From assembly GCA_963721805.1 (NCBI GenBank), contig CAVRJY010000001.1, positions 288,001 through 352,000 of the forward strand: DNA of 64,000 nucleotides. Reading direction: 5' to 3'. The translations under genes were made by a program, and so were the position numbers. Origin of the DNA: Nitrospirota bacterium (GTDB taxonomy: Bacteria > Nitrospirota > Thermodesulfovibrionia > Thermodesulfovibrionales > JdFR-86). This document shows, piece by piece, positions 5,810 to 50,449 of this stretch (position 1 is its first letter; each line of letters starts with the position of its first letter). The notes beneath the pieces are model-generated. The model saw only the letters and a program-made list of their open reading frames with translations. It was not told the origin of the DNA and ran no database searches.

Positions 5810-7188
<1,379 letters not shown>

Positions 7189-7192
<4 letters not shown>

Positions 7193-15117: not shown

Positions 15118-15210
15118 CCATGATTATATACGGTAATTGCGGCGGGAGGCTACCGGGGCGGCCGGCCCGCTTCTACATTGCAGGGCCGCGCGCGTATGAT
15201 AGAATTCTGG

Positions 15211-17526
15211 ATGGGCACGGACGGCACGAAGCGGCTGCGGCTTACGGTCAGAGGCACGGTGCAGGGCGTCGGGATGAGGCCGCGCGTGCACAGCCTCGCA
15301 ACCGGGCTCGGTCTTTCGGGATTCATCGCTAACACCGAGGACGGCGTCGTGATCGAGGTCGAGGGCAGGGTGGTTGCGGGGTTTGAAAAAGCCCTGAGAG
15401 AGGTCATGCCTCCGCTTGCGAGAATCGAGTCTATCGAGGCAGCGGATATACCGCTTCAAAATGCGGAAAGTTTTGAGATAAGAGACAGCGTGAAGGCGCA
15501 GGCCTTCGCGCTCGTGCCGCCTGATACCGCGACGTGCCCGGCATGCATCGCGGAGTTCAACGACCCGGCTGACAGACGATACCGGTATCCGTTTATCAAC
15601 TGCACCGACTGCGGCCCGCGATACAGCATCACGGTGCGCATCCCCTACGACCGGCCCAATACGACGATGTCAGGATTTTTGATGTGCGCGGAGTGCGAGG
15701 CCGAGTACCGCGACCCCTCCTCCCGCAGGTTTCACGCCGAGCCCAACGCATGCCCCGCATGCGGCCCGCGCCTGACATTAATGCCCGGCGGGCCACAGCC
15801 CGAAGGCCATGGAGGGCTGGTGAAAATTGCCGGGGACGCGCTGGAAGAGGCGGTGTGCATGCTCCAGGAGGGGCGCATCGTCGCGGTCAAGGGCATCGGT
15901 GGGTTTCACCTCGCCTGCGACGCGATGAACCCCGGCGCGGTGCGCACATTACGCGAGCGCAAGCGCCGGAGCAACAAGCCCTTCGCGCTCATGGCCCGCG
16001 ATATCGAGACGATACGCGGCCATTGCGAGGTAAGCGATGCAGAGGCCGGGGTACTGCTGAGCGCTGCCCGCCCGATTGTATTGCTAAAGAGGGGGACCCC
16101 GTCCCCGCTGCCAGAAGCGGTCGCCCCAGGCGCGCCCTATCTGGGCTTCATGCTCCCGTACGCGCCGCTGCACCACCTGCTGCTGGAGCGGATACCAGTC
16201 CTCGTGATGACGAGCGCCAACCTCGCTGAAGAGCCTATAGTCATAGACAACGAAGATGCGGTCTCAAGGCTCGGCGGGATATGCGATGCCTTCTTGCTGC
16301 ATGACCGCCAGATATTCATGCGCTGCGACGACTCGGTCGTGCGCGTGACCGGGCGGGGAGAGACCTTGATGCTCAGGCGGGCGCGCGGGTTCGTGCCCTC
16401 GCCGATAATGCTGCGCGAGGGCGGCCCGGACGTCCTGGCCGCGGGCGCCGAGCTCAAAAACACCCTCGCGCTCACGGCCGGCCGGATGGCCGTAGTGAGC
16501 CAGCACATCGGGGACATGGAAAATATAGAGACGCTCGAGTTCTTCGAAGAGACGCTCCGCAATCTCAAGGCCGCTTACGGGGCCGCCCCTGTCGCTCTCG
16601 GCCATGACCTGCACCCCGGATACCTGAGCACCAGATGGGCGCTCAGGCAGAAGCTAAGGCCCATCGCGGTGCAGCACCACCACAGCCACGTAGCCTCGGT
16701 GATGGCCGAGCACGGACTTGGCGGACGCGGCCTCGGCATAGTGCTGGACGGCGCTGGCTATGGCACAGACGGCACGCTATGGGGCGGCGAGTTTCTGGTC
16801 ACGGACGGGGCGATGTTTGAGCGCGCCGGGCATCTGCTGCCCGTCCCGCTTCCGGGCGGGGATACCGCCGTTCGCGAGCCCTGGCGGATGGCGGTGAGCT
16901 ATATGCACCAATCTAGCGGTAGGGACGAGGCCGCGACGATCCCGCTGCTTCAGAGGCTCGGGTATATGGACCGCTACGGAGAGACGCTGGTGCGTAACGT
17001 GCTTACGGTCTGCGCCATCGCGATCCCCAGCTCCGGAACTGGCAGGCTCTTCGATGCCGTGGCCGCGCTTTCGGGCGTATGCGACCGCAACACCTTCGAG
17101 GGCGAGGCCCCGATAGCGCTCACAGCGGCCGCGATGCGCGCATGGGGCAGGCCGCATGGGCCATATCCATACTCCATAACCGGCAGCGCCCCGGCGATCC
17201 TGGATTTTTCAACGGCTATAGCCGGTATAATTAATGATAGACTTTCACATATGGGCCGGGACGAGATCGCGGCCAGATTTCACCGCACCGTAATCGATGC
17301 CGTGGTCGCGCTGGGCGGCCGGATTTATGGCTCGCGCGATTTAAGGTGGGCCGCGCTTAGCGGCGGGAGCTTTCAAAATCCGCTGCTCCTAGACGGAGTG
17401 CGCGAGGGGCTTGAGGCCCTCGGGATCGAGGTCCATATCAACGAGCGCGTGCCGTTAAACGACGGGGGAATTTCACTCGGTCAAGCGTACATTGCACGGG
17501 AGGTTTTAAAACAACTTGCTCCCTGA
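15211..17526 (+). CDS. hypF: Hydrogenase maturation carbamoyltransferase
   Basis: GTVQGVG, CxxC zinc fingers (NCTDCGPRY, NACPACGP), KGIGGFHL, HDLHP, QHHHSH, NDGGISLGQ. Confidence 0.96.
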   Translation: MGTDGTKRLRLTVRGTVQGVGMRPRVHSLATGLGLSGFIANTEDGVVIEVEGRVVAGFEKALREVMPPLARIESIEAADIPLQNAESFEIRDSVKAQAFALVPPDTATCPACIAEFNDPADRRYRYPFINCTDCGPRYSITVRIPYDRPNTTMSGFLMCAECEAEYRDPSSRRFHAEPNACPACGPRLTLMPGGPQPEGHGGLVKIAGDALEEAVCMLQEGRIVAVKGIGGFHLACDAMNPGAVRTLRERKRRSNKPFALMARDIETIRGHCEVSDAEAGVLLSAARPIVLLKRGTPSPLPEAVAPGAPYLGFMLPYAPLHHLLLERIPVLVMTSANLAEEPIVIDNEDAVSRLGGICDAFLLHDRQIFMRCDDSVVRVTGRGETLMLRRARGFVPSPIMLREGGPDVLAAGAELKNTLALTAGRMAVVSQHIGDMENIETLEFFEETLRNLKAAYGAAPVALGHDLHPGYLSTRWALRQKLRPIAVQHHHSHVASVMAEHGLGGRGLGIVLDGAGYGTDGTLWGGEFLVTDGAMFERAGHLLPVPLPGGDTAVREPWRMAVSYMHQSSGRDEAATIPLLQRLGYMDRYGETLVRNVLTVCAIAIPSSGTGRLFDAVAALSGVCDRNTFEGEAPIALTAAAMRAWGRPHGPYPYSITGSAPAILDFSTAIAGIINDRLSHMGRDEIAARFHRTVIDAVVALGGRIYGSRDLRWAALSGGSFQNPLLLDGVREGLEALGIEVHINERVPLNDGGISLGQAYIAREVLKQLAP

Positions 17527-18616
17527 CGAACAGATAAGGGCGGCCGGGCAGCTCAGCCGGGCGATCGCCACGCTCAGCGCCAAGATAGGCCGCCCGCTTA
17601 ACCTGATGGAGGTCTGCGGCACGCACACGGTCGCGATCTTCCGCCACGGAATACGGAGCCTCCTGCCCCAGGAAGGCATCACGCTTCTGAGCGGGCCGGG
17701 CTGCCCGGTATGCGTCACCGCGACGCGCGACATCGACACCGCGCTTGCGTATGCCGCGCTGCCTTCTGTTGTGCTCGCTACGTTCGGAGACATGATGCGG
17801 GTGCCGGGCTCCGAGCGCTCGCTCATGGAGGCTAAGGCGCGCGGCGCTGACGTCCGCGTCGTGTACTCTCCGCTTGAGGCCCTGCGCATCGCGAAGGCCG
17901 AGCCGCAAAAGACGGTCCTGTTCTTCGCGACCGGGTTTGAGACGACCTCGCCGCTCGTTGCGGCAACGCTGATCGAGGCAGACCGCACCGGCGTTGGCAA
18001 TCTCTATATCCTCCCGGTGCACAAGCTCGTCCCCCCGGCGCTGCGCGCCCTGGTCGGGACCCCGGGGCTCAAGGTCGACGGCTTCATCCTGCCGGGCCAT
18101 GTCTGCACCATTACAGGCACAATCCCGTACCGGTTCCTGAGCGCGGATTACGGCATACCGGGCGTTGCGACCGGCTTTAGCGCGCTGGACATCCTTGAGG
18201 GCATCCTTATGATACTGATGCAGATAGAGGGCGGAGCGCCCCGGATCGCGATACAGTATAAGAAGGTCGTGCGTGAGGGGGGAAACCCGAAGGCCGTCGA
18301 GACGATCAACCGCTGCTTCGACGCGGCGGACGCCGAGTGGCGCGGCATAGGCGTGCTGCCCCTAAGCGGGCTCGTGCTTAAGCCGGAATACGCCCACCGC
18401 GACGCGCGCACGGCACTTGGGGAGGTCGTGGTCGAGGCGAGGCCTGACCCCAAGGGCTGCTCCTGCGGCAGCGTGCTTAGGGGCATCATGCTCCCCCCGG
18501 ACTGCCCGCTCTTTGGGAAGGGCTGCACCCCGGAGCGTCCTGTCGGGCCGTGCATGGTTAGCGCCGAGGGCAGTTGCGCGGCATACTATAAATACGGGGG
18601 CTACGGATACAAGTGA
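17516..18616 (+). CDS. hypD: Hydrogenase maturation protein
   Basis: MEVCGTHT, GPGCPVC, GFETT, PGHV, GPCMVSAEGSC. Confidence 0.97.
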   Translation: MLPDEQIRAAGQLSRAIATLSAKIGRPLNLMEVCGTHTVAIFRHGIRSLLPQEGITLLSGPGCPVCVTATRDIDTALAYAALPSVVLATFGDMMRVPGSERSLMEAKARGADVRVVYSPLEALRIAKAEPQKTVLFFATGFETTSPLVAATLIEADRTGVGNLYILPVHKLVPPALRALVGTPGLKVDGFILPGHVCTITGTIPYRFLSADYGIPGVATGFSALDILEGILMILMQIEGGAPRIAIQYKKVVREGGNPKAVETINRCFDAADAEWRGIGVLPLSGLVLKPEYAHRDARTALGEVVVEARPDPKGCSCGSVLRGIMLPPDCPLFGKGCTPERPVGPCMVSAEGSCAAYYKYGGYGYK

Positions 18617-33455: not shown

Positions 33456-33845
33456 CTATTCGCCGCCCTGTGCGTTGTTATAGGCCCTGCCCACGCGGGC
33501 GACGATTGCTGCGAGCCTCCTGTCGAGCTTCTCGCCGGGGCTGCCGAGGATCTTGCGCACCGCTCGGTTGCTCAGCCCGTACTTCGCTGCCAGCCTGCGC
33601 GGGCACATCCCGCCGCGGTGGTCCTTGCGGATGGCGGCATTGCGCGCTTCGCGAAACAGGCCCTCGAGGCTGTTGATGTAGATCATCGTGCCCTTTAAGG
33701 CCTTGGCGATCCTGAGCGCGGCCTCCGGCCCCGCGATCTCCGCGATCCTTCCCACGTCCCCGGAGAACAGCCCGCTCCCGCCGGCCCGCCGCCCGGTTTC
33801 GTTCGATTCGCGATGCGCCAATGTGGTTGTCCGTTTCTCTATCAT
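33456..33845 (-). CDS. Mor/C-family transcription activator
   Basis: IAEIAG..AL.I..GTMIYI..RNAAIR..LAAKYGLSNRAVRKIL matches the Mu Mor-like architecture. Confidence 0.8.
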   Translation of the reverse strand: MIEKRTTTLAHRESNETGRRAGGSGLFSGDVGRIAEIAGPEAALRIAKALKGTMIYINSLEGLFREARNAAIRKDHRGGMCPRRLAAKYGLSNRAVRKILGSPGEKLDRRLAAIVARVGRAYNNAQGGE

Positions 33846-33850
33846 TTTCC

Positions 33851-34184
33851 TAACAATAGTTAATGGTTATACGAAGAAATAATCGGTCGGGCACTCAAGC
33901 GCCCTGGCGAGCTTGGCCAGGGTGTTTGCGCGCGGCTCTTTCTTTCCCTTCTCCAAGGCCGATATAGAGACCTGGCTGAGGCCGATTTCCTTGGAAAGGC
34001 GCACCTGCGTCTTTCCCAACCGCCTTCGCCTCACCGACATCCTCTCGGGGCTGAATTGCATGTCCGCACCTCCTTTCGCTAACTATTGTTAGTTTATACC
34101 TCTCATTTTACTACTGTCAAGGGTAATACTTAACTTTAGTTAGTAAAAAGGGCTTGACAATTGCTTTTCTATAAACTATAGTTA
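33851..34184. promoter_or_regulatory. Four palindromic operators, consensus TAACTATAGTTA, with back-to-back sigma70 promoters
   Basis: TAACAATAGTTA 33851, TAACTATTGTTA 34080, TAACTTTAGTTA 34131, AAACTATAGTTA 34173; TTGACA on both strands (34115-34120 minus, 34154-34159 plus). Confidence 0.8.
33867..34061 (-). CDS. Cro-like XRE HTH protein
   Basis: TQVRLSKEIGLSQVSISALEKG..P..TLAKLARAL; GGAGG RBS. Confidence 0.9.
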   Translation of the reverse strand: MQFSPERMSVRRRRLGKTQVRLSKEIGLSQVSISALEKGKKEPRANTLAKLARALECPTDYFFV

Positions 34185-34188
34185 ATGC

Positions 34189-34836
34189 ATGGTGAAGATA
34201 AAGGCCACCGACATGAAGCGGATCGGCGGATTCATTAAGAGAAAGAGGATAGAGAAAAACCTCACCGCGCGCAGGCTGGCCGAACTCGTCGGGGTCTCGG
34301 ACGCCCATATCATCTATATAGAGAAGGGCCAGCGCGGGGCCTCCTTCGACATCATCGTAAACATACTCTCAGCGCTGGGCGAGACGGTCGAGGGCATGCT
34401 CGCCGAGATCAGGCGCAGCCGCTCCAACGTCGAGCCGGCGCGGATGGCCTCCCCGGCGCCGATCCCCGTGGTCTCATGGGTGACGGCCGGTAAGTGGCGC
34501 GAGGTCTGCGACGTCTTCGAGCCCGGCGACTCGGACGAGTGGATAGAGAGCGACGTCCGGGGCAGAAACGTCTTCGCGCTTCGCGTGACGGGGGATTCGA
34601 TGGACCCGGAGTTCAAGGACGGCGAGATCATCGTCGTGAACCCTCATATCGAGGCCACGCCGAACGACTATGTCGTGGTCAAAAACCCGAGGGGCGAGGC
34701 CACCTTCAAGCAGCTCAAGAAATACGGCCAGAGGTGGGTCCTGCACCCCTTAAACCCCAGGTACGAGGACGAGGAGGTCAGGAAGGGCGACTTCGCGATC
34801 ATAGGCAAGGTCGTCAAAAAAGAGAAACGGTATTAG
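34189..34836 (+). CDS. CI/LexA-like repressor (HTH + S24 peptidase)
   Basis: XRE HTH, VTAG cleavage site, ALRVTGDSM (Ser) and ATFKQL (Lys). Confidence 0.92.
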   Translation: MVKIKATDMKRIGGFIKRKRIEKNLTARRLAELVGVSDAHIIYIEKGQRGASFDIIVNILSALGETVEGMLAEIRRSRSNVEPARMASPAPIPVVSWVTAGKWREVCDVFEPGDSDEWIESDVRGRNVFALRVTGDSMDPEFKDGEIIVVNPHIEATPNDYVVVKNPRGEATFKQLKKYGQRWVLHPLNPRYEDEEVRKGDFAIIGKVVKKEKRY

Positions 34837-34898
34837 AAAGGCCAGGCCCGGGCGTTTGTAGGGCGCGCAGCCCGTATGGTAAAATTATCTTTGCCCTA

Positions 34899-34974
34899 GG
34901 GCGGTTAGCTCAGTTGGGAGAGCGCGGCGTTCGCAACGCCGAGGTCGAGGGTTCGACCCCCTTACCGTCCACCA
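34899..34974 (+). tRNA. tRNA-Ala(CGC)
   Basis: 76-nt cloverleaf, anticodon loop TT-CGC-AA, G3:U70 pair, GGTTCGA T-arm, encoded CCA. Confidence 0.96.
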
Positions 34975-35095: not shown

Positions 35096-37234
35096 TTACT
35101 GCCTGACGCCTACCATAAGCCTGATCGTGCCGTCGGTGGCCCCGTTGTCCATGGACATGAAAACCTGCGCGTCGGGGCTGAGCATGCCGCTGTCGCCCGT
35201 GGACATCGTCAGCTGTCCGCCGGTGCCCATCGTGTAGGTACCGCCGCTGGCGTATGGCTGCCCGTCGCTGCTGTAGAGGTCCTGGGCAGAGAAATTGCCG
35301 CTGCCGTCGAAGGTCATCGCGCTGACGCCGGTCCATGCGAGGTCTCCGGTGATCGCCGTCTGCGCGACCGTATAGTCGCCGGCCATCGATCCAGCATTAA
35401 GCCCGCTGGAGGTCGAGACGCCGATGGCCATGCCGGTCTTCCGGCCTGAGTTGCCGACCTGCACGAGGCTCAGAACGGCGCCGTCGGACCTCGCGAAGCC
35501 CTGCAGCTGCATGCCGTTGACCTTCATCGTAACCTTGCCGTTGTTCGCGACCTGGTACCTGCCGGACTTGGCCATGCCGTTGCCCGGTGCGCCTTCGCCG
35601 CCGTCGGTGTTGCCTCCGGTGGTGCCAGCGTTACGGTAGGACATCCTGCCGTTGCCCTTAAACTGGATGTTCACGAGGAACGGGGTCGAGGTGACCTGGC
35701 CTGTGCCGGTGGCCGTCATCGCCACGCCGCCTATGACATACGTTCCCTTAAGCTTGGACCTGCCCATGTGGCCGGAGGCCCTGAACCCGAGGCCGATGCT
35801 CAGGGCGTTGTCCCCGGCCGTCGAGGTGTCGGCCCATGCCATGGCGTTGCCGTCAGCTGACTGCGCGGACATGCCGCCGGTTGTTCCAAAGGACATAAGC
35901 CCTTCGGCGGTCGTGGTGACCATGCCGGTCATCCTGTTGCCCATGCCCATGGATGAGCCCGAGCCCATGGGGTTGCCGCTGAAGTTGCCCTGGCTGTCGA
36001 TGCCGAGGTTGTACATCTGGTCCCAGAAGGGCTGGCCGGATGAACGCCAGCCGAACATCCCGAAGACGTAGTTGCCGGCAGGACCCGTTCCGCCTGTGCC
36101 GCCTGTGCCTCCGGCCAGGGTCGTCGCCGTGGCGGTATTGCTCGCGGCCGATACGTTGCCGGCCGCGTCGGCTGCCTCGACGGTGTAGTTATAGGTGGTC
36201 GTAGGCGCGATCGCCATATCCGTGTAGCTGGTCATGGCCGTAGAGCCTATCTGCGTGCCGTCGCGGAAGACCTTGTATCCGGTCACGCCAACGTTATCGG
36301 AGGACGCGCCCCAGATGAGCTTGACCGAATTGGCCATCACCGATGCCGTGAGCCCGGAGGGTGCGGACGGCGGCGTGGTGTCGGTAACCGAGACGCTTAC
36401 GTTCACCGAGGCGCTTGCCGGGCTAGAGACGTTACCGGCCGCGTCCTTGGCCCATGCATACATGGTATTGGCGCCCGCGGAGCCGGCCATGTAGCTCGTG
36501 GGAGCGGTGGCCGACCAGCCGGCCGCGTTAGCGAGCGGCGCGGTAGCGGAAGTGGTCACCATGTATCCGGTCACGCCGACGTTATCGGTGGCCGTGAAGC
36601 TCGTGATCATCATCGTCATCGAGGATGACATGGCCGGCATGCTGAAGCCGGTGATCGTCGGTGGCGTGGTATCGGTCGTCGCGCCGCCTGCGGAAACCGT
36701 GAACGAATTGGTCGATACGACTTCCATCCCATGGTTGGGGTTGTTCGGGTCAGGCGTCCAGCCCGTGCCGAATACGCTGGATGAGGCGTCGTACTGGTTG
36801 CCGTACCACGCGACCTTCCAGGTGTAAGTGCCCGGGGTCGAAGGCGCGGGCGAGTTCAGGACTATGGGATAGCCCATGCCGCCGCCCATACCGCCGCTCA
36901 TCGCGCCGGTGCTGCGGGCAAGCTCGACGCCGTTTTGGTCAAGGAGGAGGCCGCGGATCCAGCCGGTCCGGTAGCCGCCGGTCATTGTTACGCTCACGGA
37001 CTCGCCGGGGGCGTACGTGGCCTTGGAGGTCGTACCGGTTATGTTAATGACGTTTTTGTTGCTGTTAGAGTGCGTGCCGTGCGAGTGGCAGCCGTTACAG
37101 GTAGTGGGCGATGCGGCGTGGCAGCTTGTGCAGTTTGCAGCGAAATAGCTCGATTCAGCACTGGCGTTCGACGGCATGAATCCAAACGCCGCGAAGCCCA
37201 GGATACAGCAGAGGATTATTAAACTTTTTTGCAT
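35096..37234 (-). CDS. Secreted diheme cytochrome c / Ig-like / Fn3 protein, Met-rich paralogue 1
   Basis: Signal peptide, CTSCH and CNGCH, DTTPP..SDNVGVTGY..YTVEAADAAGNVS Fn3 module; AGGAG RBS. Confidence 0.85.
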   Translation of the reverse strand: MQKSLIILCCILGFAAFGFMPSNASAESSYFAANCTSCHAASPTTCNGCHSHGTHSNSNKNVINITGTTSKATYAPGESVSVTMTGGYRTGWIRGLLLDQNGVELARSTGAMSGGMGGGMGYPIVLNSPAPSTPGTYTWKVAWYGNQYDASSSVFGTGWTPDPNNPNHGMEVVSTNSFTVSAGGATTDTTPPTITGFSMPAMSSSMTMMITSFTATDNVGVTGYMVTTSATAPLANAAGWSATAPTSYMAGSAGANTMYAWAKDAAGNVSSPASASVNVSVSVTDTTPPSAPSGLTASVMANSVKLIWGASSDNVGVTGYKVFRDGTQIGSTAMTSYTDMAIAPTTTYNYTVEAADAAGNVSAASNTATATTLAGGTGGTGGTGPAGNYVFGMFGWRSSGQPFWDQMYNLGIDSQGNFSGNPMGSGSSMGMGNRMTGMVTTTAEGLMSFGTTGGMSAQSADGNAMAWADTSTAGDNALSIGLGFRASGHMGRSKLKGTYVIGGVAMTATGTGQVTSTPFLVNIQFKGNGRMSYRNAGTTGGNTDGGEGAPGNGMAKSGRYQVANNGKVTMKVNGMQLQGFARSDGAVLSLVQVGNSGRKTGMAIGVSTSSGLNAGSMAGDYTVAQTAITGDLAWTGVSAMTFDGSGNFSAQDLYSSDGQPYASGGTYTMGTGGQLTMSTGDSGMLSPDAQVFMSMDNGATDGTIRLMVGVRQ

Positions 37235-37433
37235 TGGTACTCTCCTTTTTGGTTGTTCAGGCATAATACGAAGATGACGGCAGGCAGCGTCTTTGCTTGA
37301 TCGCACGGTGTCGTCTCTCTTGCCCCCTTTCGTTTTAGTTCGCTTGTTCTCGGTCCGCATGCGCCGGGACGCAACTCTCCTTATGCCCCATTGCGCACCT
37401 CCGCTGTGCCCCCTTCTGAAGGGAGGGGGAAAT

Positions 37434-37553
37434 AAAAAACCGCCAGAGCCATGTTTCCTCTGGCGGCCCGGCTGACATGAAACGGGATGCGCTCCGTTCG
37501 TTAGTCCCGTTGCTCTGCGCCCCGGGGTTTCCCGCGGTTTGCTCTGAGCAGAG
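37434..37553 (-). promoter_or_regulatory. GEMM-I cyclic dinucleotide riboswitch (A20 variant) with overlapping terminator
   Basis: CUCUG-CUCAGA-GCAAACC-gcgg-GAAA-cccc-GGGGCGCAGAGC..GGGACUAA..UGUCAGCCGGGCCGCC-AGAG; terminator ccgccagag/ctctggcgg plus U6. Confidence 0.9.
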
Positions 37554-37597
37554 TCCTTGATGCCTTCGATCTTGTGCATATAGGATAGCACCAAAAT

Positions 37598-37646
37598 ATG
37601 AAAACGCTGTGAAGCGGGCGCATATGAAATATGATTATTTTGTGAA
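37598..37646 (-). promoter_or_regulatory. 11-bp-phased TTCAC/TTCAT repeats (OmpR/PhoB-type site)
   Basis: Plus-strand ATGAA 37598, GTGAA 37609, ATGAT 37631, GTGAA 37642; same pair at 40520/40531. Confidence 0.45.
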
Positions 37647-37744
37647 CCCCCGATCCGCCTCTTTAAGGTGGCTTATGGGGGGGCCCATCCAGGCGGGGGG
37701 GGTATGAGGAGGGCCCCGCCTGGATGGGTTAAAAACTTTTGCTC

Positions 37745-40155
37745 TTACTCTTTTACGCCGATTCGCAGTCCGATAGAGCCGTCAGGGTTTCCCCTGTCTA
37801 CGGACATGAAAACCTGCTCGTCGGGGCTGATCATGCCGCTGTCTCCGGTGGACATCGTAAGCTGTCCGCCGGCCGCGACCCGGTAGGTCCCGCCAGCCGC
37901 GTACGGCTGCCCGTCGCTGCTGTAGAGGTCCTGGGCCGAGAAGTTGCCGTTGCCGTCGAAGTCCATCCTGCTGATGCCGGTCCACGCGGAGCTGCCCGTA
38001 AGTACCGTCTGGGCCACCGCATAGCCGCCGGAAAGGGAGGCTGAACTCATGCCGGTCGAGACCGGGATACCGACGGCGATGCCGTCCTTAAGGCTGGAGC
38101 CGGGCTGCACAAGGCTGATGAGCCTGCCGCCGTCCTTGACCGAGCCCTTAAGGTTCATATTATTTATCGTCATCGAGACTGAGCCGCTGCGCGAGACCGA
38201 ATACTTGCCCGAATATATCTTAGTACTGGTCACGCTGGTATCCCTCGATGCGGTCCTGGAGCCGGAGTCGTCACCGGTGCCGCTCGTGCTGCTGACGGCG
38301 CTGTAGGTCATGGTGCCGTCGCCCTTGAACGTCATGTTATACAGGTAAGCCTTCGCCGTCGTCTGACCGGTGCTGTTTTCCACCGTGGTGACGCCGCCCA
38401 GCAGGTACTTGCCCTTGAGCGTGGCATTGCTCATGCGCGTGGTGGGCTTCGCGAACCCCAGCCCGATGCTCAGGGAGTTGTCCGCGGTCTCTGAGGAGTC
38501 AGCCCACGCAAGGACCTTTCCGTCCGAGGACGGGGCCGCGATGCCGTCGAGAGCGTCAAAGTACAGGAGCCCTTCATCGGTCAGGCTGACCGTGCCGGTG
38601 CCGGTCGAGGAGCCGTCGTCGGATGAGCCCACCTGTGAGTAGGTGAAGTTGCCCTGACCGTCGAGCCCGAGGTTATACAGCTTGTCCCAGAAATTGTCCT
38701 GAGACGATTGCCATCCGAAGAGGTCGAGCGAGAAGCTGCCGCTTACTCCGGTGGCAGCGCCGCCTGCCTGGGTCGTGACCGTCGCGGTGTTGCTGGGCGC
38801 CGATACGTTGCCGGCAGCGTCGGTGGCTTCAACGGTGTAGTTATAGGTGGTCGATGCGGCGACCGTCATGTCCGTGTAACCGGCCGCGGCCGAGGTGCCT
38901 ATCTGCGCGCCGTCACGGAGGATCAGGTATCCGGTCACGCCTACGTTGTCAGAAGACGCGTTCCAGGTGAGCTTGACCGAATTGGTGGCCGTCGAGGCCG
39001 TGAGCCCTGTGGGTGCGGAAGGGGCTACCGTGTCCGAGATCGTTATCGTAACTGAAGCGCTCATCGAGGCGGATACGTTGCCCGCTGCGTCCTTAGCCCA
39101 TGCATAGAGGGTTTTGGTCCCTGCGGTGCTAAACGTATAGCTCGCGGGAGCGCTAGCCGACCATCCTGCCACGGTAGCAAGCGGCTTGGTCGAGGACTCG
39201 GTCACCATGTAGCCGGTGACGCCGTGTTGTCGGTGGCCATCATGCTTGAGATCGGTACGGTGAGCGAGGACGAGGTGGCCGGTATGCTGAAGCCGGTCAT
39301 CGTCGGTGCCATCGTATCGGGAAGCGTTATCGTAACTGAAGCGCTCATCGAGGAAGATACGTTGCCCGCGGCGTCCTTGGCCCATGCATAGAGGGTTTTG
39401 GTCCCTGCGGTGCTAAACGTATAGCTCGCGGGAGCGCTAGCCGACCATCCTGCCACAGTAGCAAGCGGTGCGGTCGCGGACTCGTTTACGAGGTATCCGG
39501 TGACGGCCGTGTCGTCGGTGGCCATCATGCTTGAGATCGGTACGGTGAGCGAGGACGAGGTGGCAGGTATGCTGAAGCCGGTCATCGTCGGTGCCATCGT
39601 ATCTACCATGGCCACGACCGTGAACGAGTTTGCGCTGACGACTTCCATTCCATGGTTTGGGTTGTTCGGATCAGGCGTCCAGCCGGCTCCGAATATGCTG
39701 GATGAGGCGTCGTACTGGTTGCCGTACCACGCGACCTTCCAGGTGTAAGTGCCCGGAGTCGAAGGCGCAGGCGAGTTCAGAACTATGGGGTAGCCGGGTC
39801 CGCCACCCATGCCGCCGCTTGCGGTGCCGGTGCTGCGGGCAAGCTCCACGCCGTTTTGGTCAAAGAGGAGGCCGCGGATCCAACCGGTCCTGTAGCCGCC
39901 GGTGAGCGTTACGTTTACGAGCTCTCCGGGGGCGTAACTGGCCTTGGAGGTGGTCCCGGCTACGTTAATTACGTTTTTTGTGCTGTTAGAGTGGGTACCG
40001 TGCGAGTGGCAGCCGTTGCAGGTAGACGGCGATGCCGCGTGGCAGCTCGTGCAGTACGTCGCGAAATAGGTCGACTGTGCGCTGGCGTCCGATGCCATGA
40101 ATCCAAATGCTGCAATCCCTAAGATGCAGCACAGGATAATTAAACTTCTTTGCAT
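37745..40155 (-). CDS. Secreted diheme cytochrome c / Ig-like x2 / Fn3 protein, paralogue 2, frameshift near 39222
   Basis: N-terminus near-identical to paralogue 1 (CTSCH, CNGCH); internal duplication of about 282 bp in which one copy is 1 nt short. Confidence 0.85.
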
Positions 40156-40352
40156 TAATACGCTCCTTTTAGTTTGGTTCGGCATAATACGAAGATGACG
40201 GCAACTGGCGTCATTGCTTGGTTAGGCGATGTCGTCTCCCGAGCCTCCTTTCATTTTGGATGGCTTTTTGTTTGCCCGTATGCACAAGGACGCACCTCTC
40301 CCTATGGCCCATCGCGCACCTCCGCTGTGCCCCTCCTGAAGGGAGGGGAAAT

Positions 40353-40472
40353 AAAAAACCGCCAGAGTAGGTTTCCCTCTGGCGGCCCGGCTGACATGAA
40401 ACGGGATGCTTCCCGCTCGTTAGTCCCGTTGCTCTGCGCCCCGCGGTTTCCCGAGGTTAGCTCTGAGCAGAG
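40353..40472 (-). promoter_or_regulatory. Second GEMM-I riboswitch (A20 variant) with overlapping terminator
   Basis: CUCUG-CUCAGA-GCUAACC-ucgg-GAAA-ccgc-GGGGCGCAGAGC..GGGACUAA..UGUCAGCCGGGCCGCC-AGAG followed by terminator. Confidence 0.9.
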
Positions 40473-40733
40473 TCTATTTTACTGTTTCGATTTCTTGCGC
40501 TTATCATAGCATGCGCAATATGAAAAACTTGTGAAGGGATTAGCCCCACTAATATGCTGCAGGCCGCAAGCCGCGCCCTCCCGCCCATGCCGGACGGCGT
40601 ATCAGCCGGGGCAGGGTTGCGGCCGGCCGCGCGTGTGCTACAATTAATATAGACATCAGCGCCCGCCACGGCCTGATTCCGAAGCGCAGACTCATAGCAA
40701 GCAACGACGCAGGTTCAAGGAAAAAGAGAGTAC

Positions 40734-42320
40734 ATGTCAAGCAAGATCCGGTCACTTATCAGGGACGAGAAGCCGCTAAATCCATCACCCGCAACGGACC
40801 CTTCACAAGCCTCAGTATCGCCCATCAGGGCCCTGCTCGTATACCCGGAATTCCCCGACACCTTCTGGAGCTTCAGGTACGCCCTGAAGTTCATCCACAG
40901 AAAGGCGAGCAGCCCGCCGCTGGGGCTGCTGACCGTCGCGGCGATGCTCCCCGGCGCCTGGGAGAAGCGGCTGGTGGACATGAACGTAAAGGCGCTGCGC
41001 GACGATGATCTCAGGTGGGCGGACCTCGTCCTGATAAGCGCGATGTCCGTGCAGAAGGCCTCGGTCAAGGCAGTGATCGCGAGGTGCAAGGCCGCCGGGG
41101 TCAGGGTCGTCGCCGGGGGGCCGCTTTTTACGACGGAATACGAGGCCTTCGAGGACGTCGACCACCTGGTCTTGAACGAGGCCGAGCTCACGCTGCCCCG
41201 GTTTCTCGAAGACCTCGCAAACGGTGCTGCCAAGCGCGTTTATACGACCGACCAGTGGGCCGACCTGCGGACGACTCCCATCCCGCTTTGGCGGCAAATC
41301 AAGGTGAGGCACTACGCCTCGGTCAATATCCAGTACTCGCGCGGCTGCCCGTTTAACTGCGAGTTTTGCGACATCACGCTGCTTTGCGGCCGCACCCCGC
41401 GCACGAAGGACAGCGGGCAGATCGTCGCCGAGCTCGAGAGCGTCTACCGCTCGGGGTTCAGGGGGCAGGTCTTCTTCGTCGACGACAACTTCATCGGGAA
41501 CAAGAAGAAGCTCAAGGAGGACGTGCTCCCGGCCATCATCGAATGGATGGACAGCCGAGGCCACCCTTTCGGCTTCAATACGCAGGCTTCCATAGAGCTC
41601 TCGGACCACGAGGACCTTATGCGCCTTATGGTGCGCGCCGGGTTCGACATGGTATTCGTCGGCATCGAGACCCCGCACGAGCAGAGCCTCGCGGAGTGCA
41701 GCAAGCAGCAGAACAAGAACCGCGACCTGCTTGCGAGCGTCAGGAAGATCCAGAATGCCGGCATCGAGGTGCAGGGGGGCTTTATCGTCGGGTTCGACAG
41801 CGATCCCCATACGATCTTCGATACCCAGATAAAATTCATCCAGGCAAGCGGCGTGGTCACGGCCATGGTCGGAATTCTTAACGCGCTGCCGCGCACGCGG
41901 CTATACGAGAGGCTCAAGCAGGAACACAGGCTGCTGGCCGAGACCTCGGGCGACAACACCGACCTCTCGACGAACTTCATCACGAAGATGGACCCGGAGC
42001 TCCTTGCCACCGGCTACAAGAAGGTCATCGGCACACTGTATTCGCCCCGGCACTACTATAAGAGGCTCAGGACGTTCATGAAGGAATACCACCCGCCCAA
42101 GAGGAAATATAAGGCGTTCAGGATCCGGCCCAACTACATGGGCGCGTTCTTCAAGGCCGCCGTAGTGCTCGGGCTGACCGGAAAAGAGCGGTTCCAATAC
42201 TGGAGGCTCCTGTTTTGGACGATGTCGCACCGTCCCGCGCAGATGTCACAGGCCATTACGCTTGCGATCTACGGCCACCATTTCAGGAAGGTGTTCGACA
42301 AGCGCCTCAGGGATGCTTGA
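40734..42320 (+). CDS. B12-binding radical SAM protein (DUF4070-type C-terminus)
   Basis: PPLGLLTVAA, VAGGP, RGCPFNCEFC, FVDDNFIGN, FIVGFDSD. Confidence 0.92.
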   Translation: MSSKIRSLIRDEKPLNPSPATDPSQASVSPIRALLVYPEFPDTFWSFRYALKFIHRKASSPPLGLLTVAAMLPGAWEKRLVDMNVKALRDDDLRWADLVLISAMSVQKASVKAVIARCKAAGVRVVAGGPLFTTEYEAFEDVDHLVLNEAELTLPRFLEDLANGAAKRVYTTDQWADLRTTPIPLWRQIKVRHYASVNIQYSRGCPFNCEFCDITLLCGRTPRTKDSGQIVAELESVYRSGFRGQVFFVDDNFIGNKKKLKEDVLPAIIEWMDSRGHPFGFNTQASIELSDHEDLMRLMVRAGFDMVFVGIETPHEQSLAECSKQQNKNRDLLASVRKIQNAGIEVQGGFIVGFDSDPHTIFDTQIKFIQASGVVTAMVGILNALPRTRLYERLKQEHRLLAETSGDNTDLSTNFITKMDPELLATGYKKVIGTLYSPRHYYKRLRTFMKEYHPPKRKYKAFRIRPNYMGAFFKAAVVLGLTGKERFQYWRLLFWTMSHRPAQMSQAITLAIYGHHFRKVFDKRLRDA

Positions 42321-42407
42321 TGGTTATTGTTAGAACTTGAGGCGGCGCGGATGCGCCTTTGAGGAGACCGCGCCGAGGCTGGAAGGCATGCCCGGGCGGA
42401 TTGCGGG

Positions 42408-43661
42408 TCAGGCTTGGGCCTCGACGCCCTTTCGGATCTCCTCAAGGTTGTTACCGAGCATCTTTACGAAGAACTTAAAACTTTCCATGTCGTAGTTGTC
42501 CGGCTGGTTCTGGATGATGCTCAGGGCCTTATAGGGGCTCATCGGCGACTGGTAGGGCCGCGCGGTCGTGATCGCGTCATAGGTGTCCGCGATCGCGGTT
42601 ATGCGGCCCGTCAGGTGGATCGCCTCGCCCTTGAGGCCGAAGGGATAGCCCACGCCGGAGAGCTTCTCGTGGTGCTCCATCAGGGGGTAGAAGGACTCCG
42701 GCGGCATGTCGCGCTTCATGCGGACGAGTTTCAAGCCCTTCTGGACATGGGCCTTCATGATGCGGAACTCGTCTTCCGTGAGCTTGCCCGGCTTGTTGAG
42801 TATCTCGGGCGGCACCTCGCTCTTGCCGATGTCGTGCAGCAGCGAGCCGATCCCCAGCGGCATGAGCTCGCGCTCCCGGTCCATGCCCATGGCCATCGCG
42901 AGCGCGAGCGTCAGGACGCTGACCTCGACGGAGTGGGCGTAAGTGTAATAGTCGTATTTGTTCAGGGTGAGGATGCTGGTGGTCAGGCCGCCGCTGTCGT
43001 GTATCGAGGCGATCAGGTCCCCGACCGCGTCCTTGCAAAGCTCGACGGTGTTGCCGCTCCTGGGGTCGGTCAGGAGCTCCTTGACTACGATCTTGGTGTT
43101 TTCCTTGATGATCGCGTTTTTCACGCGCTGGGCGTCCTTGCCCGTGCCGGTATGCGATCCGAGCTGCTTTAGGTACTCGCGGTAGCGGGCGATGTCCTTG
43201 ATGTCTATCAGGAGCTCGCCGGGCGCATCGAGGATCTCGCCGGTGAGCTCGATATCGCGGCCGGAGTAGACCGCTATGGGCGCGATATCGATGTCGTGCT
43301 TGCTGTACAGCGAGAAATCGACCGCGCTGCCGCGCTGCAGGGTGCCCTTCTCGATCTGGAGGCGCTCCTCCTTCTCGTGCGAATACCGCTTGAACTCCTC
43401 GGGCGTGATTATGCGCTCCTCGACTCGCCGGGTGTTGGGTGCGGGCGGGGGAGGGGCCTGCTGCTCCTTTGCGGCCTCGGACTCGTCGAGGTCCTCGCGG
43501 ACGAAGACGTACTCGATCCCGGCGTCCCTGATAGCCTGGAGCTGCTCCTCGTTGCGGATATGGAACTTGTGGCTTAAAAAAGGCGTCTTGAACCAGGACA
43601 TGTCTATCCCGTCAAGGAACATCCCTATGCGCAGATCTTCTACGGGTATCCTGGTTCGCAT
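42408..43661 (-). CDS. HD-GYP cyclic dinucleotide phosphodiesterase with DUF3391-like N-terminus
   Basis: YTYAHS, LLHDIGK, HHEKLSGVGYP, ADTYDAITTARPYQ; N-terminal LRIGMF..SWFKTPF. Confidence 0.92.
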   Translation of the reverse strand: MRTRIPVEDLRIGMFLDGIDMSWFKTPFLSHKFHIRNEEQLQAIRDAGIEYVFVREDLDESEAAKEQQAPPPPAPNTRRVEERIITPEEFKRYSHEKEERLQIEKGTLQRGSAVDFSLYSKHDIDIAPIAVYSGRDIELTGEILDAPGELLIDIKDIARYREYLKQLGSHTGTGKDAQRVKNAIIKENTKIVVKELLTDPRSGNTVELCKDAVGDLIASIHDSGGLTTSILTLNKYDYYTYAHSVEVSVLTLALAMAMGMDRERELMPLGIGSLLHDIGKSEVPPEILNKPGKLTEDEFRIMKAHVQKGLKLVRMKRDMPPESFYPLMEHHEKLSGVGYPFGLKGEAIHLTGRITAIADTYDAITTARPYQSPMSPYKALSIIQNQPDNYDMESFKFFVKMLGNNLEEIRKGVEAQA

Positions 43662-46543: not shown

Positions 46544-46610
46544 AATTACAAGGCGCCCCGCCCCTAGACAATACACGATACCCTCTGCTATTGTTTGAGT
46601 TATGTCTGTT

Positions 46611-47477
46611 ATGCGTTATCTGAGCCCCGGCAGGATGCTCGCGCTCAACGCCGTGCTCGGCGTGGCGCTCGTGCTCGCCGCCCTGCTCGTCGTGCGCGAC
46701 ACGGTCTCGCTGCGGCGGGCCGCGTCGAGCCCGCCCCCGGCGGCACCCGCCAAGGCCGCAGCCCATGAGGGGGCCAAGCCCTTCGAGTCCTACGCCTCGG
46801 CCGTCGAGCAGGGCAACCCCTTCGGCATCCCCGGCGGCAAGCTAGAGCGCATCACCGCCAAGACCGGTGCGGCGCAGTCCGCGCTCGAGGTGAAGGTCGT
46901 GGGCATCATCGCCTGGCCCGGGGGGCGCGGATACGCGATGCTGAGTTCGCCGAGCATCCCTCAGGACGTCTATAGGGCCGGCCGCGAGATACCCGGCGTA
47001 GGCAGGTTAAAGGCGGTATACCCCTATAAGGTAATAATCACCTCCGGGGGGAAGGACGTCGAGCTCAAGCTCATCGAGGACTCGGCGATGCCGGTCTCAG
47101 CACCGGAGGCAATTAAACCCGCTGGCGGGCGCGGAGAGTTCGCGCGGCGCACCTCGGACAACGCGTTCAGCGTCGATAGGGAGGCGCTCCGCGAGTCGCT
47201 GGAGAACCCCCAAAAACTGATGACCGACGCCCGGATGGTCCCGAACATGGAGGGCGCGTCCCAGCACGGCTTCATACTGCGCGAGATCAGGCCGGGCGGG
47301 ATATACCAAAAGCTCGGGCTCAAAAACGGCGACGTGCTGCTTCGGGTCAACGAGTTTGAGATATCGGACACGGAAAGCGCCCTGCAGGCCTTCACCGCGC
47401 TTAAGGGCCTCGACCGCGTGGCGCTCGACATCGTGCGCGGCGGAGCGAACATGACCTTGACTTATTCGGTCCAATAG
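46611..47477 (+). CDS. gspC: Type II secretion protein C-like (TM + PDZ)
   Basis: N-terminal TM; ARMVP..GF..IRPG.IYQKLGLKNGDVL PDZ domain; upstream of gspD. Confidence 0.8.
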   Translation: MRYLSPGRMLALNAVLGVALVLAALLVVRDTVSLRRAASSPPPAAPAKAAAHEGAKPFESYASAVEQGNPFGIPGGKLERITAKTGAAQSALEVKVVGIIAWPGGRGYAMLSSPSIPQDVYRAGREIPGVGRLKAVYPYKVIITSGGKDVELKLIEDSAMPVSAPEAIKPAGGRGEFARRTSDNAFSVDREALRESLENPQKLMTDARMVPNMEGASQHGFILREIRPGGIYQKLGLKNGDVLLRVNEFEISDTESALQAFTALKGLDRVALDIVRGGANMTLTYSVQ

Positions 47478-47488
47478 GTGAAGAATTA

Positions 47489-49672
47489 ATGGCTTATATG
47501 CTGCGCAACACACTTATAACCCTGCTGATCGCCGCCGCGCTCGTAATGGGCGCAGGCTCGGCGCACCTCTATGCCGCCGGCCCGGAGGGCGGGGTCACGT
47601 TTAACCTCTCGAACGTCGAGATCGCGAACGTCGCCAAGTTCGTAAGCGACGTCACGGGCAAGAACTTCATGTTCGACGACCGCGTGACCGGCAAGATCAC
47701 GATCATCGCCCCCACGAAGATCAGCCCCGACGACGCCTTCAAGCTCTTCGTCTCGGTCCTGAGATTAAAGGGCTACGCGCTCGTGCCTACCGGCGTGGAC
47801 GCATACAAGATCGTGCCCGCGGCCGAGGCCAAGCAGTCCGGCGTCGACCTGCTCGCGCCGGACAAGACGATCCCGATGGACGACAATACGGTCGCGCGGC
47901 TCATAAGCCTGACGTACATATCGGCCGACGACGCCCTGAAGTTCCTCCAGCCGGTCGTATCGAAGTCCGGGCACATATCGTCCTTCGGCCCGGGGAACCT
48001 GCTGCTGGTAGTGGATTCAGGGATGGTCGTCGACAAGGTCCTGAAGCTCGTCGAGAGCATCGACCTGCCGGCCCAGAGCGAGGAGCCGGACGTCGTGTTC
48101 CTGCAAAACGCCGGGGCCGAGGCCGTGGCCGCTACGCTTAACGACGGGCTCTCGCGCTCGGCGGCCAGACGGGGCCCGGAGCAGCAGCCCGCACGCGCGG
48201 TGGCCGACCGCAGGCTCAACGCGGTCGTACTGTTCGGCGACCGCTCGGCCAAGGAGGGCATGAAGCGCCTGGTCGCGCGCCTCGACGTCAAGGCCGACTC
48301 CACGCAGGGCGCGATAAACGTGTATTTCCTGGAGAACGCCGCGGCCGAGGACATCGCCAAGGTGCTCGAAAACATCAGGAAGGTCTCGCAGGAGGCCGCC
48401 TCGAAGCAGCAGCCTGGGATTCAGTCCATCCAGGCCGCCCAGCCGACGCGCTCGCCGTTTGAGTCCGCCTCGGGAATGAGCATCACGCCGGATAAGGCCT
48501 CGAACTCCCTGATAATCATAGCCTCGCCCTCGGACTACGCGAGCCTCGTGCAGGTGATAAAGAAGCTCGACCGCCGCAGGCGGCAGGTGTACGTCGAGGC
48601 CATGGTAGTGGAGGCCTCGGTCGACAAGACCCGCGACCTCGGCACCGAGTGGCGGGCGACCGCCCTCGACAGCAAGCGCGCCCCGATAGTGGTCGGCGGC
48701 GTCGGCACGATAGACGCCACCGCCGTCAGCGCGATCCTGAGCGGGCTTTCGGGCGCGACCGTCGGCGGGCTCGGTAATTTCTTCTCGGTGCCGGTGACAA
48801 ACCCCGACGGCACTACCGGGACGCTCTCGGTGCCGGGCTATGCCGCGCTATTTAGCGCGAGCATCTTCAGCTCGGCCGTAAACGTCCTCTCCACGCCCCA
48901 GATCCTCACGTCCGACAACGCCGAGGCCGAGATCATCGTCGGCGAGAACGTCCCGTTCATCACCCAAAACAACGTCAATACCGTGAATTCCGGCGTCGTC
49001 TCAAACTACATAGAGCGCAAGGACGTCGGCATCACGCTTAAGCTCACGCCCCAGATCACCGAGGGCGACTACGTCAAGCTCGACATCTACCAGGAGATCT
49101 CGGCCCTCGAGAACATCTCGTCGAACAACCTCGTCTCGATCATCACTACGGTCGGCCCCACCACGACCAAGCGCTCGACCAAGACGGACGTCGTGGTCCG
49201 CGACGGCCAGACCGTCGTGATCGGCGGGCTCATGCAGGACAAGGTAAACGATACGATTACCAAGGTGCCGCTGCTGGGCGACATACCGCTGCTGGGCTGG
49301 CTTTTCAAAAACAGTTCGAAGGAGCACACGAAGACCAACCTCCTCGTCTTCCTGACCCCGCACATCATCAGGGACTCCAGGGAGCTCGAGGGCCTGACCT
49401 CACACAAGCGCACGGAGATCTCCGGGGATGACGACCTTTACATCGACGGCGAACTCGTGGTCAGCTTCGGCCCCGGAGTGGCCGCCGAGAAGGCAGCCGA
49501 GATACTCAGGTCCAAGGGCGTGACCGTCCTGGGCACCCTCTCGGACGGCAGGTACATAGTGCGCACTCTCGTGCCCGAGCGCACGGCCGAGACGATGGGG
49601 GAACTCAAGTCCACCCCGGGCGTGGTGGACGTCTTCAGGCGGCTCCGCACCGAGAGCCTTACCGCCCAATAA
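47489..49672 (+). CDS. gspD: Type II secretion secretin
   Basis: N0-N3 domains, QVYVEAMVVE, NVLSTP, GENVPF, DVGITL, KVPLLGDIPLLGWLFK. Confidence 0.95.
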   Translation: MAYMLRNTLITLLIAAALVMGAGSAHLYAAGPEGGVTFNLSNVEIANVAKFVSDVTGKNFMFDDRVTGKITIIAPTKISPDDAFKLFVSVLRLKGYALVPTGVDAYKIVPAAEAKQSGVDLLAPDKTIPMDDNTVARLISLTYISADDALKFLQPVVSKSGHISSFGPGNLLLVVDSGMVVDKVLKLVESIDLPAQSEEPDVVFLQNAGAEAVAATLNDGLSRSAARRGPEQQPARAVADRRLNAVVLFGDRSAKEGMKRLVARLDVKADSTQGAINVYFLENAAAEDIAKVLENIRKVSQEAASKQQPGIQSIQAAQPTRSPFESASGMSITPDKASNSLIIIASPSDYASLVQVIKKLDRRRRQVYVEAMVVEASVDKTRDLGTEWRATALDSKRAPIVVGGVGTIDATAVSAILSGLSGATVGGLGNFFSVPVTNPDGTTGTLSVPGYAALFSASIFSSAVNVLSTPQILTSDNAEAEIIVGENVPFITQNNVNTVNSGVVSNYIERKDVGITLKLTPQITEGDYVKLDIYQEISALENISSNNLVSIITTVGPTTTKRSTKTDVVVRDGQTVVIGGLMQDKVNDTITKVPLLGDIPLLGWLFKNSSKEHTKTNLLVFLTPHIIRDSRELEGLTSHKRTEISGDDDLYIDGELVVSFGPGVAAEKAAEILRSKGVTVLGTLSDGRYIVRTLVPERTAETMGELKSTPGVVDVFRRLRTESLTAQ

Positions 49673-49699
49673 GCGGCCTCATCCATGGAGGATTCGAGC

Positions 49700-50449
49700 A
49701 TGACCGCACGGAGACTGTTTAAGCTGATCTGCACCGCCCTGCTCATTCCGGCCGCGCTCGCGGCCTGCGGCAAACTCTCTCACATGTCGTACAATTCCCT
49801 GAGCGAGGACCCGCCCTCCGACCTCACGGCCAAGGCCACGTCCTCAAGCTCTGTGCACCTGAAGTGGAAGGCCCCGATAAGCGGCGTCTCGGCCGGATAT
49901 GACATATACCGCTCGGATGGGGGGTCAGGGGCATACGTCGAGATAGATTCCTTCGACATCGGCAACGCCATAGACAACAGCATAGATAACAGCATCGTCA
50001 ACAGCCCTTTCTACGACGACACCGGGCTCACCGCAGGCCAGCTTTACTGCTACGAGGTCTCGTCATATAACGCAAGTGGCGTGCAGTCCAAGAAGAGCAA
50101 TTCAGCCTGCGTCTCGATCCCCGGCGTCCTGAGCGTCGACCCTGCAAACCTGAGCAACGGCATCGCTTGGGACCCCGCCCCCACCATCAGCGTGACCTTC
50201 ACGGATCCCATAAAGGCCTCGACGATATCAGAGAGCAACTTTACGATGCTCGTCAACTCCGGAGCGGATATCGGAAACTCAGTCGTTGGATCAGTGATAA
50301 TTAACAGCGTTAATAACGTGCGGTTTACGCCGGGCGCTTCACTGGAGAACGGTACGACATACCAGGTCACTCTCGGAAGCGGCGTACAGTTCGATGACGG
50401 AAGCGATCTGGACGGCCCCTACACCTGGAAGTTCACGACTGCCCCGTAG
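49700..50449 (+). CDS. Lipoprotein with Fn3 and Ig-like (Big_5-type) domains
   Basis: LAAC lipobox; YDIYR..DTGL..YCYEV; VTF..F.P..L..GTTY.V..WKFTT. Confidence 0.8.
   Translation: MTARRLFKLICTALLIPAALAACGKLSHMSYNSLSEDPPSDLTAKATSSSSVHLKWKAPISGVSAGYDIYRSDGGSGAYVEIDSFDIGNAIDNSIDNSIVNSPFYDDTGLTAGQLYCYEVSSYNASGVQSKKSNSACVSIPGVLSVDPANLSNGIAWDPAPTISVTFTDPIKASTISESNFTMLVNSGADIGNSVVGSVIINSVNNVRFTPGASLENGTTYQVTLGSGVQFDDGSDLDGPYTWKFTTAP

Follow-up and report, generated by a model that had tools for sequence, protein, structure and literature searches.

Which second messenger governs a pair of twin genes for exported proteins, each preceded by its own GEMM-I riboswitch, and does a nearby gene for an HD-GYP phosphodiesterase belong to the same circuit? 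These questions are raised by positions 35096-43661 of a stretch of 64,000 nucleotides from a Nitrospirota bacterium (GenBank assembly GCA_963721805.1, contig CAVRJY010000001.1, 288,001-352,000), hereafter the window. We regard a circuit based on 3',3'-cyclic AMP-GMP (cGAMP) as the best-supported reading, and as moderately probable, because the signatures of a reader, a writer and an eraser of this dinucleotide all pass published sequence tests. Sequence features, the architecture of the expression platforms and the comparative associations are direct observations, from which the ligand, the enzyme products, heme binding and surface location are predicted.

A cmscan search of the whole window against Rfam recovered three matches above the gathering score, namely one tRNA and two GEMM-I aptamers (RF01051, gathering score 35), the latter both on the minus strand at 37459-37553 (51.2 bits) and 40378-40472 (47.8 bits). 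In both aptamers model position 11, the base immediately 5' of the P1a G-C pair, is A in place of the consensus G. This position corresponds to G20 in Vc2 numbering, and cGAMP-binding GEMM-Ib riboswitches carry A there (PMC6140456). The proposal of two A20 GEMM-I riboswitches in the initial annotation is thus borne out, both being of the A20 (GEMM-Ib) kind.

On the 3' side of each aptamer, GCCGCCAGAG, a 9-nucleotide loop and CUCUGGCGG are followed by U6AUUU and fold as a 12-bp hairpin of about -20.5 kcal/mol. These intrinsic terminators lie on the minus strand at 37430-37469 for the first riboswitch (12-bp stem, -20.5 kcal/mol) and at 40349-40388 for the second (-20.8 kcal/mol, overlapping the 3' strand of P1); a simple terminator scan missed both because their loops have 9 nucleotides, and they were seen by folding. 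The 5' arm of the terminator (GCCGCCAGAG) includes CAGAG, which is the 3' strand of the aptamer P1 and the partner of the 5' CUCUG. Since a ligand-stabilized P1 and the terminator are mutually exclusive, both riboswitches are likely to be transcriptional ON switches. The terminator overlaps the 3' strand of P1 in all 12 aptamers of this subtype that were checked with their flanks, comprising four from this genome and eight from four others (two relatives and two named Nitrospirota metagenome-assembled genomes, MAGs). In this comparison P1 and the terminator arm covary, with CUCUG/CAGAG/CUCUG replaced by CUUUG/CAAAG/CUUUG. The ligand-free minimum-energy fold pairs the 5' CUCUG instead with an internal CAGAG, which stands where the family has a conserved CAAAG and may act as an anti-aptamer element.

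We hence posit that each twin gene would form its own transcription unit opening with an A20 (GEMM-Ib) aptamer. Without ligand, the strong terminator would capture the 3' strand of P1 (CAGAG) and transcription would stop about 190 nucleotides short of the start codon; on binding of the ligand, which is most likely 3',3'-cGAMP, P1 (CUCUG/CAGAG) would form, the terminator could not, and the gene would be read through. The products would be Sec-exported proteins with an N-terminal two-CxxCH segment on an immunoglobulin (Ig)-like sandwich, followed by Ig/Fn3 repeats. The writer of the messenger would be a conserved GAF-GGDEF protein encoded away from the window, on contig C3 of the assembly, and the eraser the HD-GYP protein of the window with an RxxQ motif. 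The leaders between terminator and start codon (37235-37425 and 40156-40345) measure about 190 nucleotides, are 80% identical between the paralogs and exceed the length required for a ribosome-binding site. A long GC-rich hairpin at 37641-37745 (CCCATCCAGGCGGGG...CCCCGCCTGGATGGG), between the stop codon of paralog 2 and the leader of paralog 1, is probably a terminator separating the two twin units.

Paralog 1 (35096-37234, minus strand) follows a Shine-Dalgarno sequence AAGGAG and codes for an exported protein of 712 amino acids. Behind a signal peptide ending in ASA come two CxxCH motifs, CTSCH (residues 35-39) and CNGCH (46-50), eleven residues apart, and then an Ig-like sandwich, an Ig-like repeat, an Fn3 domain and a C-terminal domain. 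The Pfam matches to Fn3/Big_13 are weak and under cut-off, and the Gly/Ser/Thr-rich C-terminal domain of about 330 residues returned no family match. Paralog 2 (37745-40155, minus strand, start at 40155) shares the N-terminus with two CxxCH motifs and carries an additional Ig-like repeat (about 95 residues); the two genes are 86% identical in DNA over the first 540 aligned coding bases and 67% identical in the C-terminal part. Their earlier description as tandem secreted two-CxxCH paralogs, each behind its own GEMM-I, is right in calling them twins and needs one correction, as paralog 2 is frameshifted near 39220.

Residues C35, C38, H39, C46, C49, H50, H52 and H168 are invariant in 14 aligned members of the family, which is what two covalently bound, His-ligated hemes would need. 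Of the marks of a c-type cytochrome, we thus find conserved CxxCH motifs and candidate distal ligands, and we do not find a curated family or fold. A Foldseek search with the modeled N-terminal domain gave weak matches, all of them to Ig/macroglobulin-like sandwiches, with a template-modeling (TM) score of about 0.37. Judging from the conserved residues, the two-CxxCH segment is probably a diheme module, and the evidence as a whole points to redox or attachment proteins with a predicted location at the cell surface.

The wider occurrence of the twin-gene family, as defined by its N-terminal 190 residues, was surveyed in the genomes of 185,579 species, of which 79 loci were kept and searched with a covariance model made from the aptamers of this order. 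This gave 53 GEMM-I matches, 51 of which lie at most 840 nucleotides upstream of the gene on the same strand, distributed over 32 loci, 19 of which have two each. An upstream aptamer is present in 31 of 37 loci from Thermodesulfobacteriota (Geobacteraceae/Desulfuromonadales) and in one of four from Nitrospirota, and in none of the 14 from Myxococcota or the 24 that are unlabeled or bear other labels. Position 20 is A in 49 of the 51 upstream aptamers, C in one and truncated in another. Hence, the twin-gene family is a regular component of the A20 regulon of the Geobacter lineage. The aptamers of Nitrospirota represent a separate sequence subtype within this class. A quick maximum-likelihood tree of 81 N-terminal domains joins the two window copies as sisters (SH-aLRT 100); as its backbone is unresolved and the Nitrospirota rows are scattered, we make no claim on the direction of transfer of the twin genes.

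The closest parallel to the window lies in the Geobacter GEMM-Ib riboswitches for 3',3'-cGAMP, reportedly described in 2015 by Kellenberger and by Nelson, of which Gs1761 upstream of pgcA is an example. Shared with these are the GEMM-I fold with A20, a terminator-based ON platform, the association with genes for extracellular cytochromes and surface proteins, and even the twin-gene family itself, which stands behind A20 aptamers in the Geobacteraceae/Desulfuromonadales loci mentioned above. In contrast to them, the window subtype begins with 5' CUCUGCUCAGAGC, has CAGAG for the conserved CAAAG and a longer P1b hairpin, and occurs as single rather than tandem aptamers in a host of another phylum, its ligand preference being predicted. 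The encoded protein itself resembles the 'cytochrome c / Ig-like domain-containing' proteins of Geobacter and Geomonas, with 47% identity over 371 amino acids to one from G. metallireducens (P0023). The shared region comprises the signal peptide, the two-CxxCH segment, the Ig-like sandwich and the 95-residue Ig-like repeats; it covers the N-terminal half of the query alone, and the window protein differs in having fewer repeats and another C-terminal domain.

Beyond the window, the genome (2.78 Mb in nine contigs, 94% complete) has the further GEMM-I elements for which a search had been suggested: there are four in total, all A20, with a common 5' end and the same platform, two of them heading cytochrome loci. 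The third precedes a gene for a heme-free secreted protein of 227 amino acids, and the fourth precedes a tandem pair of genes whose products each have eight CxxCH motifs (octaheme cytochromes). The twin genes thus account for two of the four members of an A20 regulon in which these octaheme cytochromes are included as well. In a sample of 60 genomes of relatives, GEMM-I is present in 33, and position 20 in all 123 matches at or above cut-off is A in 20 (12 genomes) and G in 103; with A in all four of its aptamers, this genome is therefore unusual. One relative of the same family (G003) has 17 GEMM-I elements, eight of them A20. At one of its loci (L323, G003:C1:44000-63500), two A20 aptamers of the window subtype, 3.5 kb apart at 12535-18608, head genes for secreted Fn3-like proteins free of heme motifs, and directly upstream of the two aptamers is a gene for a different HD-GYP protein of 759 amino acids with the motif RPYG.

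A search for Hypr GGDEF or CD-NTase synthases had been recommended at the outset. The CD-NTase alternative (SMODS, PF18144) gave no match at E <= 0.01, the genome being 94% complete, and a candidate of the Hypr type was found among the GGDEF domains. There are 23 matches to the GGDEF family, of which the strongest 21 were translated, and three of these 21 have GHxxGS at the position of Asp344 in PleD. Hypr GGDEF enzymes are distinguished by Ser348, natural enzymes with Ser/Thr348 having GGDE[F/Y] only and never GGEEF; at the cross-dimer site of Tyr304, Arg goes with a bias toward cyclic di-GMP (c-di-GMP) and Tyr, Ser, Ala or Gln with cGAMP (PMC6456294). The writer candidate, a GAF-GGDEF protein of 493 amino acids encoded at 994-2475 of contig C3 of this genome (G000), has GHLVGS, aligned on the GHLVGS of GacA, together with GGDEF and Ser at the Tyr304 site, which is the Hypr signature. 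Its catalytic domain scores 176 bits against G. metallireducens GacA (6D9M), its best solved relative, versus 122 against PleD. These features make the C3 protein a likely cGAMP writer. A frameshifted near-copy of its gene lies on contig C1. The second Ser-type candidate, a GAF-GGDEF protein of 382 amino acids with GGDEY, is less clear: it scores 100 bits against 6D9M and 99 against WspR, and has at the Tyr304 site Asp, the residue named for the canonical GGDEF compared in PMC6456294.

The C3 enzyme agrees with the Hypr enzyme GacA in Ser348 with GGDEF, an equivalent of Asn339, an RxxD I-site and a non-Arg cross-dimer residue, and with the cAMP-activated GacB of M. xanthus in its GAF-GGDEF layout. 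Unlike either, it has about 170 residues before the GAF domain that are without a Pfam match; its product is predicted, and its orthologs are near-universal in most families of the order, whether riboswitches are present or not. One clear ortholog, 63-75% identical where the next paralog reaches at most 47%, occurs in 46 of the 60 relatives (one of the 46 cut by a contig end); none was found in the families f3, f6 and f10 of this sample. Most families have the Ser-type GGDEF; those to which the complete, single-contig genomes of the sample belong gave no match. The GHLxGS and GGDEF motifs are kept in 28 of 29 relatives' loci that were read and in 119 of the 120 best database homologs. Of 300 other genomes sampled evenly across the phylum, 62 gave a match at E <= 1e-55, and none of these belongs to the four largest families sampled. 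Orthologs of the second candidate occur in only four of the 60 relatives; in one of the relatives (G016, C1:861222-872767) the sole GEMM-I, which is A20, lies about 10 kb from such an ortholog of the GGDEY class.

The suggested non-canonical HD-GYP gene about 2 kb away is indeed present: the DUF3391-HD-GYP (HD_5) protein is encoded on the minus strand at 42408-43661, about 1.9 kb from the second aptamer, 34 nucleotides after the end of a PMT_2 glycosyltransferase gene with the same orientation. Its HD and GYP motifs are intact (LLHDIGK, HHEKLSGVGYP), and at the guanine-recognition motif it has RPYQ, aligned with RPYK of PmGH (4MCW) and RPYR of V-cGAP3. Upon translation and alignment of the 18 HD_5 matches of the genome, this motif was readable in 15, and its fourth position is K or R in 13, ambiguous in one and Q in the window protein alone. 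RxxQ makes PmxA cGAMP-specific, and of six Rxx(Q/N) enzymes screened, three seemed selective for cGAMP, two cleaved either dinucleotide and one showed no activity (bioRxiv 10.1101/600031). The window protein shares the intact HD and GYP motifs and RxxQ with PmxA and Bd2325, the cGAMP-specific GAPs, and differs from them in having DUF3391 rather than Cache-transmembrane-HAMP at its N-terminus and in lacking orthologs in relatives, its activity being predicted. We accordingly rank it as a candidate cGAMP phosphodiesterase and the likely eraser. The gene between it and the twin genes, on the plus strand at 40734-42320, codes for a B12-binding radical SAM protein with DUF4070 and gave no evidence for a place in the circuit.

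The suspicion that the organism is Nitrospirota-like is upheld by RpoB identities and by named homologs. RpoB is 71-72% identical to that of two relatives of the same order, 71% to that of a MAG titled 'uncultured Nitrospiraceae bacterium' and 63-65% to those of three other Nitrospirota-titled MAGs, and the corresponding values are 58% for Geobacter, 59% for Anaeromyxobacter, 59% for Methylomirabilis and 57% for Deferrimicrobium. All five organism-named entries among the 120 best homologs of the Ser-type GGDEF belong to Thermodesulfovibrionales, Nitrospirota or Nitrospirae. A placement in Nitrospirota, close to Thermodesulfovibrionales, is thus supported by these sequence comparisons.

Several observations weigh against a cGAMP circuit. 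A single-base frameshift near 39220, within the second copy of the repeat, splits paralog 2 into open reading frames at 39202-40185 and 37745-39385, which leaves this gene either disrupted or misassembled. Sequence indels or a mixture of strains could plausibly account for it, given the frameshifts that distinguish C1 from C3 in the same assembly; a look for public sequencing runs and RNA data bearing on the matter returned none. The twin proteins have no match to a cytochrome family in Pfam or NCBIfam, and the model of the N-terminal domain is of low confidence in its heme segment, with a mean predicted local distance difference test (pLDDT) score of 67 overall and values below 50 in that segment. 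The ligand test is permissive too, for A20 RNAs, natural ones included, are able to bind c-di-GMP as well: both dinucleotides were bound by a G20A mutant and by at least one aptamer with a natural A20, from Clostridium (PMC6140456). On the side of the writer, the cross-dimer residue is Thr rather than Ser in 87 of the 120 Hypr-type homologs, and A20 aptamers occur together with the Ser-type GGDEF in 11 of the 12 A20 genomes, which is no better than the base rate and hence uninformative, since the enzyme is found in 46 and A20 in 12 of the 60 relatives. On the side of the eraser, no ortholog of the window HD-GYP was found in the 60 relatives, the best matches being RxxK paralogs, 39-45% identical, in families without the Ser-type GGDEF, and three relatives with other RxxQ HD-GYP proteins (G037, G047 and G054) have G20 aptamers only.

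One alternative is ordinary control by c-di-GMP of a biofilm or surface regulon, with aptamers that are bispecific or prefer c-di-GMP and a Ser-type GGDEF that makes mainly c-di-GMP. In its favor, canonical GGDEF domains of the Asp type number about 20 in the genome, and Rxx(K/R) HD-GYP proteins more than 12; besides the dual binding by the G20A mutant and the Clostridium aptamer, two tested Hypr enzymes yielded mostly c-di-GMP (PMC6456294). Nevertheless, the four aptamers of the genome are uniformly A20 while G20 dominates in the relatives (103/123), the cross-dimer residue of the writer is Ser and not the Arg tied to c-di-GMP bias in PMC6456294, and an RxxQ eraser candidate is at hand. The Geobacteraceae homologs, moreover, stand behind A20 aptamers of a class reported to be cGAMP-selective there. 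We consequently hold c-di-GMP control to be improbable. A different alternative concerns the function of the twin proteins, which might be mainly adhesins or surface-layer-like proteins whose CxxCH pair is not redox-active and, for example, binds metal or is structural. The Ig/Fn3 repeats and the C-terminal domain without a family match do make up the bulk of each protein, the modeled N-terminal domain weakly resembles macroglobulin/Ig-like sandwiches, and the same aptamer subtype heads heme-free secreted proteins in relatives. Set against this, the invariance of the cysteines and histidines listed above in 14 members and the name 'cytochrome c' given by one source to the G. metallireducens homolog lead us to consider a mainly adhesive role unlikely, if a little less so than c-di-GMP control.

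The HD-GYP gene calls for a separate judgement, as it may be a chance neighbor outside any functional or inherited module of the twin genes and still degrade cGAMP for the cell. It stands in a separate transcription unit behind the glycosyltransferase gene, with the opposite-strand radical SAM gene toward the riboswitch. No ortholog was found in the 60 relatives, where the RxxK paralogs come closest, and there is thus no conserved linkage with the twin genes; the module of the initial annotation, if taken as a physically conserved unit that includes the HD-GYP gene, is not supported. Conversely, no second RxxQ HD-GYP was found in the 2.78 Mb of the genome, and the gene for this one is 1.9 kb away from two of the genome's four A20 aptamers; in G003, the gene for the non-canonical RPYG protein immediately precedes two aptamers of the window subtype. 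We regard chance neighborhood as the fairly probable state of affairs.

According to the literature covered, Hypr-cGAMP signaling has been characterized in Geobacter, Myxococcus and Bdellovibrio and has a narrow distribution. The assumption that such a pathway had gone undescribed in Nitrospirota agrees with our literature searches, which returned no description and whose coverage did not extend to the founding PNAS papers and their supplements. With the candidate reader, writer and eraser together, this genome would be a further case of the known Hypr-cGAMP/GEMM-Ib system. All three candidate parts are thereby seen together in a Nitrospirota-like genome, with the readers on cytochrome genes. 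If the ligand is as predicted, cGAMP becomes tied to extracellular electron transfer in a second phylum, metagenomes can be searched for such regulons by a sequence marker, and biochemistry gains a large conserved family of Hypr-type GGDEF enzymes (46/60 relatives and 62/300 of the phylum sample). A bolder and only tentative proposal, to which we give rather less than even credence, is that cGAMP made by the conserved GAF-Hypr GGDEF would be a core messenger of anaerobic Thermodesulfovibrionales-like Nitrospirota, in which a lineage-specific A20 subtype would have been recruited to switch on extracellular multiheme cytochromes and surface proteins, marking a lifestyle of extracellular electron transfer in uncultured Nitrospirota.

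Some features outside the circuit deserve mention. The stretches C1:1342000-1349000 and C3:1-6000 are near-identical over genes for secA, GAF-GGDEF, an MglA-like GTPase, an AAA protein and a CheA-like protein; the C1 copy has several frameshifts and the copy on the 20-kb contig C3 is intact, so that the duplication looks like strain mixing or a local assembly error. In the window, a protein encoded at 7120-9069 combines cNMP-binding, CBS and DUF294 nucleotidyltransferase-like regions and is worth noting since cAMP activates the GAF domain of M. xanthus GacB. Directly adjoining the twin-gene block, at 33459-34974, are genes for a Mor-family activator and an S24/LexA-like repressor and the tRNA of the Rfam scan, identified by type as tRNA-Ala(CGC) at 34899-34974; this segment could represent what is left of a prophage, or an integration site next to the block. 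Finally, 3 kb from the HD-GYP gene, at 46602-50446, the type II secretion genes gspC and gspD are followed by a gene for a small Fn3/Big_5 protein, and the surface proteins might be exported by this secretion system.

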